Below are positions 2,997 to 9,610 of a stretch of DNA of 11,618 nt, piece after piece (the stretch's first letter is position 1; each line of letters opens with the position of its first letter). Source of the stretch: a virus (Duplodnaviria; Heunggongvirae; Uroviricota; Caudoviricetes); the IMG/VR virus record IMGVR_UViG_2585427748_000011, positions 1 to 11,618 of that record; one strand, given 5' to 3'. Position numbers and translations under genes: made by a program. Below the pieces are notes generated by a model that saw nothing but the letters and a program-made list of their open reading frames with translations, had not been told where the DNA came from and did not search any database.

Positions 2997-3623
2997 ATGG
3001 AAACGGTTGGTCAGCGTATAAAAGCTCTGAGAAGAGTTACCGGAACGTCCCAGAAAGAATTGGGTAAATTTTGTGGAGTAAGCGACGTTGCTGTGGGGTA
3101 CTGGGAGAAAGACATCAATACCCCTGGTGGGGAGGCACTTTCGAAATTAGCGAAGTTCTTCAATACGTCAATAGATTACATTCTTTATGGTGCTGAGTTT
3201 GAAGGCAAACTCGTCACAAACATGCGCAGAGTTCCTGTAATATCGTGGGTTCAGGCTGGGCAGTTTACTGAGTGCAGGGCAGCAGAAGTGTTTAGTGAAG
3301 TGGACAAGTGGGTAGATACATCATTAAAGATTGGTGATAACTCATTTGCATTAGAGGTTAAAGGTGACTCCATGACTAACCCTAATGGCCTCCCAACAAT
3401 ACCAGAAGGCGCAACAGTGATTGTAGATCCAGATGCAGAACCTCGTCATGGAAAAATAGTCATCGCTCGACTTGATGGAACAAACGAAGCTACAGTAAAA
3501 AAATTAGTCATCGATGGCCCTCAAAAGTTTTTAGTGCCATTAAATCCTCGGTATCCCAACATCCCTATCAATGGTAATTGCCTTATCATTGGTGTAGTCA
3601 AAGGAGTTCAATACGAACTCTAA
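2997..3623 (+). CDS. CI-type prophage repressor (N-terminal HTH_XRE, C-terminal S24 LexA-like autopeptidase)
   Basis: 208 aa. N-terminus QRIKALRRVTGTSQKELGKFCGVSDVAVGYWEKD is an XRE-type HTH. C-terminal domain has the Ser motif GDSM and downstream Lys (ATVKKLV) of the S24 Ser-Lys dyad, and a LexA-like cleavage site VQAG-QF. Confidence 0.85.
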   Translation: METVGQRIKALRRVTGTSQKELGKFCGVSDVAVGYWEKDINTPGGEALSKLAKFFNTSIDYILYGAEFEGKLVTNMRRVPVISWVQAGQFTECRAAEVFSEVDKWVDTSLKIGDNSFALEVKGDSMTNPNGLPTIPEGATVIVDPDAEPRHGKIVIARLDGTNEATVKKLVIDGPQKFLVPLNPRYPNIPINGNCLIIGVVKGVQYEL

Positions 3624-3644
3624 GACCTCTCTTCTCTAACTAAG

Positions 3645-3678
3645 GCACCGAACTAAGAAAAGTTTGGTGTTTTCTCTT
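3645..3678 (+). terminator. Candidate intrinsic terminator downstream of the repressor gene
   Basis: Stem CACCGAACT (3646-3654) pairs with AGTTTGGTG (3661-3669), 9 bp with one G-U; loop AAGAAA; followed by TTTTCTCTT (3670-3678). The reverse strand has no U-tract. Confidence 0.5.
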
Positions 3679-3705
3679 GCCATAATAACTAAGTTAAGTT
3701 AGATT
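3677..3705 (+). promoter_or_regulatory. Candidate pL-like early-left promoter with operator dyad in the spacer (OL-like)
   Basis: -35 TTGCCA (3677-3682), 17-bp spacer, -10 TAGATT (3700-3705). Spacer contains dyad TAACT-A-AGTTA (3686-3696), same core as the dyad at 2909-2919. Identified by eye only. Confidence 0.3.
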
Positions 3706-3910
3706 TTATATCAAAGATAACGAACAGGCAGGACGCCCACGAAGTAGCCGCCTGGGGCATATGAAGTCCAGGATGATTCGTTGAGTCATGTTGTGCCACT
3801 AGGCACTCATGTTAAAGCAGGTGTATGAAATGAAAGTCCAGATTTTAAACAATAACTGTGAAGTCGTTTGGGCGTAAAACATGACCGCGCGTAGACCAAG
3901 GGAGGAAAAA

Positions 3911-4087
3911 GTGGGAATAGTTAGAAATCAAGCAGATATATTGAAAATCAGCTCTGAATTGCTTGGAGTTTTGAAAAGTGAGCTCACCGCACATGGCATC
4001 GAGCCCACTGACGAAAATTTAAGTTGGGTTTTGTCGATTATTCAACAATCACTCAAGCCCAGCCTCAGCAAACTTTTTATCGAGTAG
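3911..4087 (+). CDS. Small hypothetical protein (58 aa from GTG 3911; 68 aa if ATG 3881)
   Basis: Strong SD GGGAGG (3899-3905) 6 nt before in-frame GTG 3911; ATG 3881 has no SD. AT-rich island; overlaps the 3' end of a convergent minus-strand ORF by 39 bp. Confidence 0.35.
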   Translation: MGIVRNQADILKISSELLGVLKSELTAHGIEPTDENLSWVLSIIQQSLKPSLSKLFIE

Positions 4088-4240
4088 TGCTTCGAACTTA
4101 TCGTAAAGCTTGCTTATGTCGTCTATCGGGTTTTCTGACGTACTGTAATTTTTATCTGATGTCATGGCAGCAGTCTGATATGCAGTGTGAGTCTTAACCG
4201 ATAGTTGGAATAAATAAAGAATTTTTTCTTCTTTGGTCAT
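4049..4240 (-). CDS. Small hypothetical protein, 63 aa (MTKEEKILYLFQLSVKTHTAYQTAAMTSDKNYSTSENPIDDISKLYDKFEALLDKKFAEAGLE)
   Basis: ATG at 4240-4238 preceded on the minus strand by AAGGAA at about 8 nt spacing. The track ORF 4049..4282 starts further upstream without an RBS. AT-rich, convergent with the repressor and the + strand small ORF. Confidence 0.45.
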   Translation of the reverse strand: MTKEEKILYLFQLSVKTHTAYQTAAMTSDKNYSTSENPIDDISKLYDKFEALLDKKFAEAGLE

Positions 4241-4495
4241 AACTATTTCCTTCTTGGCTATATGAAAACACCAAGATACCACCGAGCCTGAAGTGGTGAA
4301 AAGACAGGCACATAACAGCTAAGTATTTTCAACCAGAGAGAATCCTTAGCGTTGTGGTGAATGCGGCTCAGCGCACGCGGGTTAAGGTTGAGGCTGACAG
4401 TCGACCTTCTGTGGATACCCACCCGCCTGGTGTGCAACTTTCGCCAGGCACCGGGAGGCACCCGGCACCACAACTTTATGCTGTGTGTAGTCCTC

Positions 4496-4541
4496 GCGGT
4501 ACCAGTTTGTACACTTGCTTCCGGCTGGTACCGCTCTTTTT
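4496..4541 (+). terminator. Terminator-like hairpin in the untranslated leader (possible 3' end of a small RNA or an antiterminated terminator)
   Basis: Perfect 10-bp stem GCGGTACCAG (4496-4505) / CTGGTACCGC (4525-4534), 19-nt loop, then TCTTTTT (4535-4541). The loop is long for a canonical terminator. Confidence 0.45.
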
Positions 4542-4630
4542 ACAAAACAGAGAAGAACATCACCGGACGACGGGCTCATAACCCAATCCATCCGGGCGGC
4601 TGCCACCGCAGGTGTTCTTCTCTGTTTTGT
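4542..4630 (+). other. Long perfect inverted repeat (18 bp arms, 53-bp spacer) predicted to form an extended RNA stem; candidate RNase III processing site or structured regulatory RNA
   Basis: ACAAAACAGAGAAGAACA (4542-4559) is the exact reverse complement of TGTTCTTCTCTGTTTTGT (4613-4630). The stem can extend with G-U pairs into the preceding U-tract. No ORF with an RBS spans it. Confidence 0.4.
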
Positions 4631-4678
4631 GGAGAAACCAACCGACCTTGCAGGGTCGATATGATTAGGAGCAGAAAA

Positions 4679-5041
4679 ATGGCTAGCGAACGCAGTACTG
4701 ATGTGCAGGCATTTATTGGGGAGCTGGACGGCGGCGTATTTGAAACCAAAATCGGCGCAGTTCTCAGTGAAGTCGCTTCCGGTGTGATGAACACGAAAAC
4801 CAAAGGTAAGGTCTCACTCAACCTGGAAATCGAACCATTTGATGAGAACCGTGTGAAAATCAAACACAAACTCTCATATGTTCGCCCGACTAACCGCGGG
4901 AAAATTTCCGAAGAAGACACCACCGAAACGCCGATGTATGTCAATCGCGGTGGTCGCCTGACTATTCTGCAGGAAGACCAGGGACAATTACTGACTCTTG
5001 CCGGTGAACCTGACGGAAAACTCCGCGCAGCAGGTCATTAA
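4679..5041 (+). CDS. Hypothetical phage early protein, 120 aa (YfdP-like by length and position)
   Basis: ATG 4679 preceded by AGGAG (4667-4671, spacing 7). The track ORF 4361..5041 carries a 106-codon Arg/Cys-rich N-terminal extension across the structured region, judged non-coding. Confidence 0.7.
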   Translation: MASERSTDVQAFIGELDGGVFETKIGAVLSEVASGVMNTKTKGKVSLNLEIEPFDENRVKIKHKLSYVRPTNRGKISEEDTTETPMYVNRGGRLTILQEDQGQLLTLAGEPDGKLRAAGH

Positions 5042-6059: not shown

Positions 6060-6596
6060 ATGTCATTTATTAAAACTTTTTCCGGGAAGCATTTTTATTA
6101 TGACAGGATAAATAAAGACGACATCGTGATTAACGATATCGCGGTTTCCCTTTCAAATATCTGCCGCTTTGCCGGTCATCTTTCTCACTTCTACAGTGTC
6201 GCCCAACATGCGGTGCTTTGCAGCCAGCTGGTGCCGCAGGAATTTGCTTTTGAAGCGTTAATGCATGATGCAACAGAAGCGTATTGCCAGGATATTCCCG
6301 CTCCACTGAAACGCCTTCTTCCTGACTATAAACGGATGGAAGAAAAAATAGACGCCGTAATCCGTGAGAAATACGGGTTACCCCCGGTTATGAGCACGCC
6401 CGTGAAATATGCCGATCTCATCATGCTGGCAACCGAACGCCGCGATCTCGGGCTTGATGATAGCTCTTTCTGGCCTGTACTGGAAGGTATCCCGGCAACA
6501 GAGATGTTCAAAGTGATTCCACTGTCGCCAGGCCATGCCTACGGGATGTTTATGGAACGTTTTAACGAGTTATCGGAGTTACGCAAATGCGCATGA
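6060..6596 (+). CDS. HD-domain 5'-deoxynucleotidase (YfbR/YfdR-like dNMP phosphohydrolase)
   Basis: 178 aa from ATG 6060 (GGAG at 6049-6052); HD-domain signature H...HD...D in VAQHAVLCSQLVPQEFAFEALMHDATEAYCQDIPAPLKRLL. The track ORF start at 5997 lacks an RBS. Confidence 0.75.
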   Translation: MSFIKTFSGKHFYYDRINKDDIVINDIAVSLSNICRFAGHLSHFYSVAQHAVLCSQLVPQEFAFEALMHDATEAYCQDIPAPLKRLLPDYKRMEEKIDAVIREKYGLPPVMSTPVKYADLIMLATERRDLGLDDSSFWPVLEGIPATEMFKVIPLSPGHAYGMFMERFNELSELRKCA

Positions 6597-8148: not shown

Positions 8149-8664
8149 ATGGCGTTAACACACCACGAACTCTGTCAGATTGCGTACAAGTTCCTTAAGC
8201 GCAACGGGTTCAAGGTTTGCTTTCATGACCGCTTTGTTGCTGTAACCAGTACCGGAGAACAGCCAGATGCTATGGGATTCAGAAATTCAGCATCATGCCT
8301 GATAGAGGCGAAGTGTTCTCGTGCTGACTTGTTGGCAGATAGAAAAAAGCGTTTCCGTAAAAATCCCTCACTTGGCATGGGCGACTGGCGATTCTTTATT
8401 AGTGAGCCGGAAATTATTTCAGTTGAGGATTTACCTCCCGGCTGGGGATTACTTCACGTTGTTAACGGAAGAGTACGGAAAGTACATGGATGGCCCAGGG
8501 GTAATTGCTGTTGGGGTAATCCTGACGATAAGCCATTTACCGGGAATAAGCAGGTTGAATGCGATTACATGTTATCTGCATTAAGGCGCATGGAGCTAAG
8601 AGGACACCTTAATGAAATATATGACGGTGTAATTGTTAATAAGAAAGAAGGAAACGCAGCATGA
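8149..8664 (+). CDS. PD-(D/E)xK nuclease-superfamily protein (MmcB-like by recollection)
   Basis: 171 aa; RBS AGGAGAG before ATG 8149; motif D...E-x-K in GEQPDAMGFRNSASCLIEAKCSRAD. Confidence 0.55.
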   Translation: MALTHHELCQIAYKFLKRNGFKVCFHDRFVAVTSTGEQPDAMGFRNSASCLIEAKCSRADLLADRKKRFRKNPSLGMGDWRFFISEPEIISVEDLPPGWGLLHVVNGRVRKVHGWPRGNCCWGNPDDKPFTGNKQVECDYMLSALRRMELRGHLNEIYDGVIVNKKEGNAA

Positions 8665-9530
8665 CCACTTTAACCGACAAAGAACTGATTAAAGAAATCA
8701 GAGAGCGTATAGGCAGCCTGGACGTCCGAGACAATATTGAGCGTCGGGCTTATGAAATTGCTCTGGCATCGCTGGAACGCGAACAGATTCGCCACGAGCA
8801 TGCCAAATGGTCTGACTCCACATTTGGCTGCGTTGGCCCCATTGGTCCGCTGAAACATCTCTCAAAAGAGGCACTGGAAGCCGCAGCCGAACCAGACGAT
8901 CTTAGCGAGTGGGCTGATATGCAGTTTCTGTTGTGGGATGCACAGCGCCGTGCTGGCATCAGCGATGCTGAAATTACCGCTGCTATGGAAGATAAATTGA
9001 AGATCAACATGGAACGCCAGTGGCCTGAACCAAAAGATGGTGAGCCTCGCTTGCACATTAAAGAACCCGGCAACTCTCCGGTAACTCCGGCTCGCCTGCC
9101 TGGTGGTTTCACCATTGAGGATGCGAAGGCATTACATGAAGACCTGGTTCGCAGCCACATAAGCCAGGCTTTAAGTGGTGAAAAGATGAAAAAGAACGAT
9201 CGCGATGCTGATTTGCGCTGGATTCATGGCGTAATAGTTCAGGCAGCGTGGTTTGTAAAAGCATCACTGGAGCAAAATGCACTATCGGGCAACTATCCGG
9301 TAACTCCGGATGGTTGGATAAGCTGTAGTGAGCGAATGCCGAAAAAGAATCAGAACGTACTTATTTCGGTGAATTTCGATAGTGATCTGGTTGAGCCGCT
9401 AATATGCTCCGCACGCTATACCGGAAGTACCTTTCGGCGAGGACAAGCAACGATTAAGCCGGGTAATGGTATTGAGCAGGCAACCCACTGGATGCCGCTG
9501 CCAGAACCGCCGCAGGAGGTGAATCAATGA
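8661..9530 (+). CDS. Two-domain phage protein: N-terminal MazG-like NTP pyrophosphohydrolase-type region (DUF550-like), C-terminal DUF551-like domain
   Basis: 289 aa; ATG 8661 overlaps the upstream stop (ATGA), RBS GAAGGAAA. N-terminal acidic helical motif EALEAAAE...EWADMQFLLWDAQRRAGISDAEI; C-terminal WISCSERMPKK...THWMPLPEPP. Domain names are from memory. Confidence 0.55.
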   Translation: MTTLTDKELIKEIRERIGSLDVRDNIERRAYEIALASLEREQIRHEHAKWSDSTFGCVGPIGPLKHLSKEALEAAAEPDDLSEWADMQFLLWDAQRRAGISDAEITAAMEDKLKINMERQWPEPKDGEPRLHIKEPGNSPVTPARLPGGFTIEDAKALHEDLVRSHISQALSGEKMKKNDRDADLRWIHGVIVQAAWFVKASLEQNALSGNYPVTPDGWISCSERMPKKNQNVLISVNFDSDLVEPLICSARYTGSTFRRGQATIKPGNGIEQATHWMPLPEPPQEVNQ

Positions 9531-9610
9531 GCTGGCCTGATGCAATCGTAACTCTGGGGATGGTATTCGCAGTAGCGTTTGTTGTGTACTCGATTTGTCG
9601 ATGGGGATAA
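9527..9610 (+). CDS. Small hydrophobic peptide, 27 aa (MSWPDAIVTLGMVFAVAFVVYSICRWG), predicted single transmembrane helix
   Basis: Strong SD AGGAGGT (9514-9520) 6 nt before ATG 9527, which overlaps the upstream TGA (ATGA). Too short to appear in the ORF track. Confidence 0.45.
   Translation: MSWPDAIVTLGMVFAVAFVVYSICRWG

Follow-up and report, generated by a model that had tools for sequence, protein, structure and literature searches.

A conserved three-way-junction leader RNA with an initiator-tRNA anticodon-arm-like tip at operon heads of lambdoid prophages

Genomic context of the locus

The DNA considered here (the window, that is, the whole stretch of 11,618 nt that was analysed and to which all coordinates refer unless another sequence is named) is 100% identical to a prophage of Escherichia coli KSC1031 and about 97% identical to Shigella phage SfV, and the prophage is a lambdoid one of the SfV/CPS-53 type; of 5,426 complete E. 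coli genomes, over half contain a match to the region. Along the + strand, a cI-like repressor gene (2997-3623) is followed by a promoter-like site with CTAAG operator repeats (about 3620-3705), by two convergent and overlapping small ORFs (3881-4087, +, and 4049-4240, -; PHROGs 15476 and 2605, both of unknown function), of which only the - strand one is annotated in RefSeq, and by an STnc100-like sRNA or leader (4321-4543, +; Rfam RF02076, 48.5 bits with a gathering score of 47). This RNA ends in an intrinsic terminator (4496-4541, +), with its stem at 4496-4507 and 4523-4534 and the U-tract UCUUUUU at 4535-4541. Next comes the element that is the subject of this work, which RefSeq labels as a frameshifted hypothetical protein, and then a Shine-Dalgarno sequence AGGAG (4667-4671, +) and yfdP (4679-5041, +; PHROG 204), as annotated by RefSeq in the identical KSC1031 locus. 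The genes after yfdP are yfdQ, yfdR, yfdS, yfdT, xis and int, and this order places the element in the 5' untranslated leader of the leftward operon, which runs from the cI side to int. Among homologues of the same architecture (Type A, defined below) the first downstream gene is usually yfdP, and otherwise an rdgC-like gene (PHROG 724), a gene for a yfdR-like HD phosphohydrolase, yfdS or xis. In most of them a hairpin with a U-run abuts the element directly.

CTAAG operator-like repeats stand on both sides of the cI-like gene (2911-2974 and 3620-3705), with CTAAG-ATTA-CTTAG at 2961-2974. Between 3500 and 5200 there is one σ70-like promoter match, TTGCCA-17-TAGATT at 3677-3705, amid the second set of CTAAG repeats, and it is likely to be the leftward early promoter. 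A palindrome, ACCAC-N10-GTGGT (4278-4297), lies between the - strand gene at 4049-4240 and the STnc100-like RNA, 3-4 bp inside the mosaic boundary (about 4275-4279) at which homology to SfV and its relatives starts; it may serve as a site for a regulator or belong to a promoter region.

Other mosaic boundaries flank the element closely. In the mEp460, cdtI and Stx2c phages the shared sequence extends only from 4496 rightwards, a boundary inside the sRNA terminator, and in SfII and SKA5 it extends only up to 4655, before the yfdP ribosome-binding site, which indicates that the element travels with either flank. CPS-53 of E. coli K-12 does not carry it: a larger deletion there, which removed the immunity region together with the element, fuses iteron DNA to yfdP (L154, 3400-3520). 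In the window, a cluster of repeats, both inverted and direct (GATTTTGACGGGTCAGAATCTG and similar), at 1360-1461 lies within an ORF on the - strand (824-1765) encoding a helix-turn-helix replication protein, and these repeats look like origin iterons.

Architecture of the leader RNA

The element is built around a perfect inverted repeat, ACAAAACAGAGAAGAACA at 4542-4559 and its exact reverse complement TGTTCTTCTCTGTTTTGT at 4613-4630, with 53 nt between the arms. These 18-bp arms form the longest perfect inverted repeat of the window, and in 300 dinucleotide-preserving shuffles of it (loops of up to 300 nt) the longest perfect repeat was mostly 10-12 bp and at most 16 bp. Thus, the preliminary description of this DNA was right to point to exact arms, to their rarity by chance and to an extension to about 25 bp through G-U pairs with the upstream U-tract. 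As judged from folding and covariation, the repeat is the basal stem, P1, of a + strand RNA of about 100 nt organised as a three-way junction. The 5' strand of P1 (4537-4561, +, 25 nt) includes the first arm and the 3' strand (4611-4635, +, 25 nt) the second; the outer extension sets the last five U of the terminator U-tract (4537-4541) opposite GGAGA (4631-4635), and the inner one adds U4560·G4612 and C4561-G4611. P1 therefore comprises 25 bp, 20 of them Watson-Crick and five G·U, with four of the five G·U pairs in the U-tract:GGAGA extension. The 101-nt RNA has a folding energy of -51.2 kcal/mol (z = -8.5 relative to shuffles).

The perfection of the 18-mer is particular to the variant in the window, since most E. 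coli copies have a G·U wobble through replacement of A4557 by G, and in other genera the majority of copies are mismatched at the centre of P1 (column 20/115 is mismatched in 47 of the 74 sequences of the alignment described below). The composition of the arms is asymmetric in every variant, with no U in the 5' arm and no A in the 3' arm, which is what allows G·U pairs to be so numerous. Were P1 to be opened, pairing of the pyrimidine-rich 3' arm (CUUCUCU) with the downstream AGGAG would be conceivable. P1 was considered as an intrinsic terminator in its own right and rejected, as no U-run follows it on either strand; the sequence after the helix is GGAGAAACC on the + strand and UAAAAAG on the - strand.

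Within P1 stand two hairpins. The P2 arm (4563-4595, +) has a co-varying closing stem (4563-4567 with 4591-4595) and carries an invariant core of 21 nt, GACGGGCUCAUAACCCAAUCC (4569-4589, +), which is identical in Type A, in Type B and in the other contexts described below. P3 (4596-4609, +), the hairpin GCGG-CUGCCA-CCGC, is indicated by the fold and by compensatory changes at columns 67/101 and 68/100, and it varies in sequence and in length, from 14 to about 41 nt among homologues. Several P3 loops read UUGCAG or UCCUAAC and look like anticodon-loop 7-mers. The 53 nt that appear as a "spacer" between the arms are the most conserved part of the element, a two-hairpin module which includes the anticodon stem-loop of the initiator tRNA. 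After the 3' arm, a linker, GGAGAAACYAAC (4631-4642, +), contains a Shine-Dalgarno-like GGAG; nearly every Type A copy keeps this linker, some of those without an upstream U-tract among them. Beyond the 3' strand of P1 the conserved linker reads GGAGAAACCAAC. Finally, a fourth hairpin predicted by folding, P4 (4643-4658, +), with the loop UGCA, is located just 5' of the yfdP ribosome-binding site; its stem differs among homologues and its loop is similar, and the motif UGCAG spans the loop and the first base of the 3' side of the stem.

Conservation, covariation and strand

A pattern scan with the conserved inner sequence returned 26 loci in GTDB species representatives, almost all from Enterobacterales, the host genera being Escherichia, Shigella, Citrobacter, Enterobacter, Klebsiella, Kosakonia, Leclercia, Mixta, Erwinia, Pantoea and Phytobacter. 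In IMG/VR the same sequence occurs in more than 120 contigs, at the least, among the matches listed. From the GTDB and IMG/VR loci, 74 distinct Type A sequences were collected in an alignment (A1), on which the three-helix fold of the window was tested. The fold pairs 96.0% of 2,516 cells in A1, and when partners are slid by 1-3 columns the figure falls to 41-50%. Ten pairs are changed on both sides, and compensatory cells number 126, compared with 37.6 +/- 4.6 after shuffling, a value of 126 being reached in none of 500 shuffles. For instance, in P1 the column pair 18/117 is GC in 46 sequences and CG in 28, 13/122 is CG in 46 and AU in 21, and 24/111 is AU in 59 and GC in 13. The co-variation of the two arms, which had been proposed as a check on the suggestion that the repeat acts as an RNA stem, is thus present in related prophages, and pairing of the arms is conserved across homologues while their sequence is not.

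The strand is given by the wobble pairs. G·U pairs are frequent in A1 (UG in 66 sequences at 28/107, GU in 20 at 12/123 and GU in 18 at 25/110), and at these positions an RNA from the opposite strand would have A·C mismatches, so their abundance points to a + strand RNA. In agreement with this, the covariance model built from A1 scores 119.7 bits on the + strand of the window and 48 bits on the - strand. Copies of the element measure 104, 105, 106, 107, 108, 112, 123, 127, 129, 130 or 131 nt, a spread that rules out a conserved reading frame, and the P1 duplex has 20-25 bp in every Type A copy. Both the structure of this leader RNA and its existence as a family are well supported.

Relation of P1 to the preceding terminator

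P1 had been proposed to compete with the terminator hairpin for the U-tract in mutually exclusive structures. This does not hold, because the U-tract is outside the terminator stem and both helices are present together in the minimum-energy fold of 4480-4700. Moreover, transcription reaches the 3' arm 70-95 nt past the U-tract, which, going by this geometry, would be too late to affect the decision to terminate. In the modelled read-through RNA the U-tract is instead absorbed into P1.

An anticodon stem-loop of initiator tRNA at the tip of P2

The tip of P2, GGG-CUCAUAA-CCC (GGGCUCAUAACCC, 4572-4584, +), is identical to the anticodon stem-loop of the initiator tRNA-fMet (residues 29-41), with three G-C pairs, the loop CUCAUAA and the anticodon CAU at 4577-4579. 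Three consecutive G-C pairs in the anticodon stem are a mark of initiator tRNAs. A 14-mer, CGGGCTCATAACCC, is common to the core of the element and E. coli metZ, and a 19-mer, GGGCTCATAACCCAATCCG, is found within genuine tRNA-Met(CAU) genes of metagenomic phage tRNA arrays, the identity of the core to genuine phage tRNA-Met(CAU) genes extending over 18-19 nt. The presence of the 19-mer in tRNA-Met genes makes the 3' extension AAUCC tRNA-like too, since it corresponds to the 3' strand of a 5-bp anticodon stem and the start of the variable region. The element thus has what is seen in anticodon-arm mimics, namely a leader hairpin reproducing the anticodon stem-loop of one tRNA, here about 100 nt upstream of yfdP.

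As the core served as the search pattern, its invariance within the A1 set is partly a matter of construction. Selection on the core is nevertheless indicated by its identity in RNAs whose P1, P2-closing and P3 sequences are unrelated (Type B, the locus L158 and an Acidobacteriaceae-type phage). In scans that demanded a changed base at one of the anticodon positions, eight variant contigs were found, compared with more than 120 canonical ones, at the least, among the matches listed: C34 is changed to U or A in four contigs and A35 to C or G in four, three of them from one lineage, and no contig with a change of U36 was found in these scans. A37U is present in the ST64B and Klebsiella lineages. 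The anticodon loop therefore appears to be strongly, not absolutely, conserved.

Comparison of CUCAUAA with downstream start-codon regions gave no consistent complementarity among homologues. Inside yfdR, 10 nt (GGTTATGAGC) within CGGTTATGAGCAC (6385-6397, +) are complementary to the tRNA-like loop and stem; this stretch was rejected as a target, being one match at no more than two mismatches where 0.2 are expected by chance per window. A separate observation concerns a metagenome contig (L184, about 2000-1900, -) which carries the 5' two-thirds of a tRNA-fMet gene and stops after the anticodon stem (…CCCAATC / CGCCTGCG…, the stroke marking the break), a break that looks like an integration junction in a tRNA-fMet gene.

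Other scaffolds and the operon-head module

A scan for the core followed by G revealed a second group, Type B, consisting of Y-shaped RNAs in which P1 has only 5-7 bp and in which the sequences of P1, the P2 closing stem and P3 differ from those of Type A. RNAalifold, applied to 15 distinct Type B sequences, arrived independently at the same Y shape, with nine compensatory pairs. The core is found on yet other stems in L158, in a Pantoea MAG (L031) and in the Acidobacteriaceae-type phage (L020, L156, L166 and L188), where it caps a simple two-tier hairpin. Type B stands at the head of the late operon, 3' of Q-like genes and one or two terminators and directly upstream of holin-endolysin-spanin cassettes with three families of holin (PHROGs 198, 20 and 126). 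Judging from these comparisons, the leader-RNA family has two architectures or more: Type A opens the leftward early operon, and Type B the late, lysis operon.

The surroundings recur as well. A terminator lies just upstream of the element in both types; two Type B loci (L157 and L164) have a canonical STnc100 (84.4 bits; 3082-3262 in L157) about 250 nt upstream of the element, L158 has an isrJ match (72.6 bits, 956-1026) at about the same distance upstream of it, and ST64B has an STnc100 match of 35.1 bits (L003, 2298-2416). The succession of an sRNA-like leader, a terminator, the tRNA-like element and a first gene at two different operon heads argues that the element follows operon position and not one particular protein. 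It follows the same line of thought that STnc100 and IsrJ downstream of Q-like genes could be short terminated leader transcripts and not free-standing sRNA genes, so that prophage "sRNAs" of this kind are suggested to be parts of larger leader modules. The possibility that the leftward leader is a duplicate of the Q-dependent late leader was rejected, given that the two leaders of SfV show no similarity to each other, and a search with the covariance model R1 found no second or diverged copy in SfV, HK022 or the 933W late region.

Proposed mode of action

The explanation that we consider best, with a probability of about 0.5, is that of a leader RNA with a basal helix and a tRNA-like tip that would act through successive steps of read-through, RNase III cleavage and factor binding. 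RNA polymerase reading through the preceding terminator, presumably during lytic development, would transcribe the element, which is probably made mainly in this way or by an antiterminated polymerase. Once the 3' arm is made, P1 would form and take up the terminator U-tract, as in the predicted structure. RNase III would then cut P1, parting the sRNA or leader from the coding mRNA and freeing or exposing the tRNA-like module of P2 and P3. In the last and speculative step, this module might engage a factor that normally reads the anticodon arm of the initiator tRNA, the candidates being the P site of the 30S subunit and a tRNA-fMet-specific enzyme or nuclease such as VapC.

Cleavage of P1 by RNase III seems to us about an even prospect. 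The idea comes from the length of the duplex and from analogy with the lambda N leader; taking near-continuous dsRNA of about 20 bp or more as the mark of a substrate, P1 offers 25 bp, with pairing kept in 74 homologues. The P1 of Type B has only 5-7 bp, which excludes RNase III as the common mechanism of the family. Published RNase III maps that come from K-12 would not cover the element, which is deleted there.

As for what the tip does, the tRNA-like loop precedes the first start codon by about 100 nt in the window, by about 170 nt in L034 and by about 575 nt in L108, a spread of about 2.7-fold within Type A and up to about 6-fold overall, which speaks against direct control in cis of one start codon; together with the inconsistent complementarity of the loop, it favours a role in trans or in processing. 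MetRS reads the CAU anticodon and does not need the G-C pairs. Of the recognisers considered (the 30S P site, MetRS and VapC-type PIN toxins), the 30S P site and the tRNA-fMet-specific VapC-type PIN toxins may be the ones that read the CAU loop as well as the three G-C pairs. Such toxins, from Shigella, Salmonella and others, cleave tRNA-fMet in the anticodon stem-loop (PMC4705866). One may go further and imagine that lambdoid phages make, by read-through at operon heads, a dedicated decoy of the initiator-tRNA anticodon arm, excised by RNase III in Type A and acting in trans during lytic growth, which would either shield tRNA-fMet from VapC-type nucleases or occupy the 30S P site and so reprogramme initiation; we regard this bolder version as doubtful.

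Alternative explanations

The presence of a perfect 18-bp inverted repeat could in principle reflect a feature of the DNA, such as a protein-binding dyad, a cruciform or a miniature transposable element with the arms as its terminal inverted repeats, and both the dyad and a tiny inserted element had been put forward at the outset. The abundance of G·U and U·G pairs, the compensatory changes and the difference in model score suit a + strand RNA alone, and it is the pairing and not the sequence of the arms that is conserved. The sequences that flank the repeat, CTTTTT and GGAGAA, differ and so give no target-site duplication; a query with the 89 nt deleted, the check suggested for an empty site, found none among its best 30 matches in complete E. 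coli genomes, all 30 aligning in two pieces that span 381 bp with the 89 nt present; and the repeat occurs once in the window and once in the whole SfV genome. Neither a binding dyad nor a MITE is therefore retained, and an explanation at the level of DNA is extremely improbable. Another reading takes the long stem as the sole functional part, a plain hairpin for RNase III processing or translational control like that of the lambda N leader, with an incidental tip: P1 is long (25 bp), nearly perfect and maintained by compensation, and the leader lies on one side of it and the first gene of the leftward operon on the other. RNase III, however, requires no specific apical sequence, and yet the apical 21-nt core is more conserved than P1 and is kept in Type B, where P1 is reduced to a few base pairs, so that we hold this reading to be unlikely, without dismissing it.

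The tip itself might have been inherited, if the element were a remodelled phage tRNA-Met that has lost the D arm and is retained as a mark for processing by RNase P, E or Z or as a stabiliser of the mRNA 5' end. The identity of the core to genuine phage tRNA-Met(CAU) over 18-19 nt, the overall Y shape with a short P1 and the position of Type B all fit, the last because the interval from late promoter to lysis genes is the slot that tRNA genes occupy, at the start of the late operon, in other lambdoid phages (PMC8022706), among them 933W according to its annotation (ileZ-argN-argO). On the other hand, the element was rejected as a tRNA gene, neither ARAGORN nor the Rfam tRNA model making a call in the window or the Type B loci; there is no T-loop and no CCA-like feature, and inheritance alone fails to explain an invariant loop amid replaced stems, all of which makes this origin rather improbable. 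Very improbable indeed is a cis-acting antiterminator RNA of the HK022 put type that would modify RNA polymerase in phages without N. The element does stand at an operon head, and LLS, ST64B and phiNP have no N homologue and have been proposed to use a put-like mechanism (PMC12315714). But it is 3' and not 5' of the leader terminator and forms a three-way junction and not two tandem stem-loops; visual comparison revealed no evident similarity to putL or putR, and in local alignments of putL and putR with 4300-4699 the best segment (score 22) fell in the STnc100 part, with nothing better in the element. In the immunity/put region of HK022 (L007) the element model gave no hit that rises over noise, and its weak hits (18.3 bits at 6441-6495 and 10 bits at 8322-8414) fall outside putL and putR. 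The element is thus not an obvious candidate for a put-like mechanism in N-less phages. As a separate observation, the STnc100 core GCGGGTTAAGGTTGA (4340-4400) resembles HK022 putL, GCGGGTTCAGGATGA (L007 8215-8325, -), and putR, GTGGTCAAGGATGA (9445-9540, +); the score of 22 is not significant when compared with shuffles (16.2 +/- 2.2, maximum 25), and the resemblance is of interest, though non-significant, because this phage group has no N homologue. The leader RNA with a basal helix and a tRNA-like tip remains the reading that we prefer.

Significance and comparison with known systems

The family is apparently undescribed. Rfam release 15 gives nothing at the gathering threshold over 4537-4660, and with the E-value threshold relaxed it gives only chance-level matches to miRNA precursors (E of at least 0.2); a literature search found no paper describing the element or containing the extended motif, and a recent preprint on the Pas and STnc100 sRNAs makes no mention of it. 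About half of complete E. coli genomes and many Enterobacterales prophages carry the element, which stands at the entry of the operons for lytic growth and lysis. Should the tip have a function, the element would be a phage RNA of wide distribution imitating the tRNA on which every translation start depends, it would link phage development to translation initiation or to host defences that target tRNA, and it would provide a new structured-RNA family for annotation.

When compared with the RNAs that surround it in prophages, the element is adjacent to the STnc100 (RF02076), PasD and IsrJ sRNAs, with which it recurs as a module of sRNA, terminator and element in both early-left and late contexts, but the Rfam model of STnc100 ends at 4543 and the element is outside it. 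With the tRNA genes of late operons (933W ileZ-argN-argO, phage L and Sf6) it shares the slot, in Type B, and a core that is part of a phage tRNA-Met; unlike them, it lacks the D arm, the T loop and the acceptor end, and tRNA finders are silent on it. HK022 putL and putR are likewise structured RNAs encoded in cis at the early-operon head of an N-less lambdoid phage. The put RNAs form two stem-loops upstream of terminators and bind the zinc-binding domain of the RNA polymerase β' subunit (PMC9378689), whereas the element is a three-way junction 3' of a terminator and has no evident sequence similarity to put.

The likeness to RNase III sites concerns the stem. Lambda has an RNase III hairpin in the N leader, ahead of the first gene of its leftward early operon, and the element resembles this site and those of the T7 early mRNA in being a long, near-perfect hairpin of about 100 nt in an untranslated leader, with a duplex of a size suited to RNase III. 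The first gene here is yfdP and not N, and the apex of the element, in contrast with these sites, holds a strictly conserved tRNA-like module for which an RNase III site has no need.

The likeness to the thrS operator concerns the tip. The operator of the E. coli thrS mRNA is a mimic of the tRNA-Thr anticodon arm that is bound by ThrRS, and in both cases one particular tRNA has its anticodon stem-loop reproduced by a hairpin of an mRNA leader. The element differs in copying the initiator tRNA-fMet, in standing in phage operon leaders at a variable distance from the start codon, and in preceding genes that are unrelated to methionine or translation. Structured leader RNAs with tRNA anticodon-arm mimicry are a known kind, of which a phage version modelled on the initiator tRNA is apparently new.
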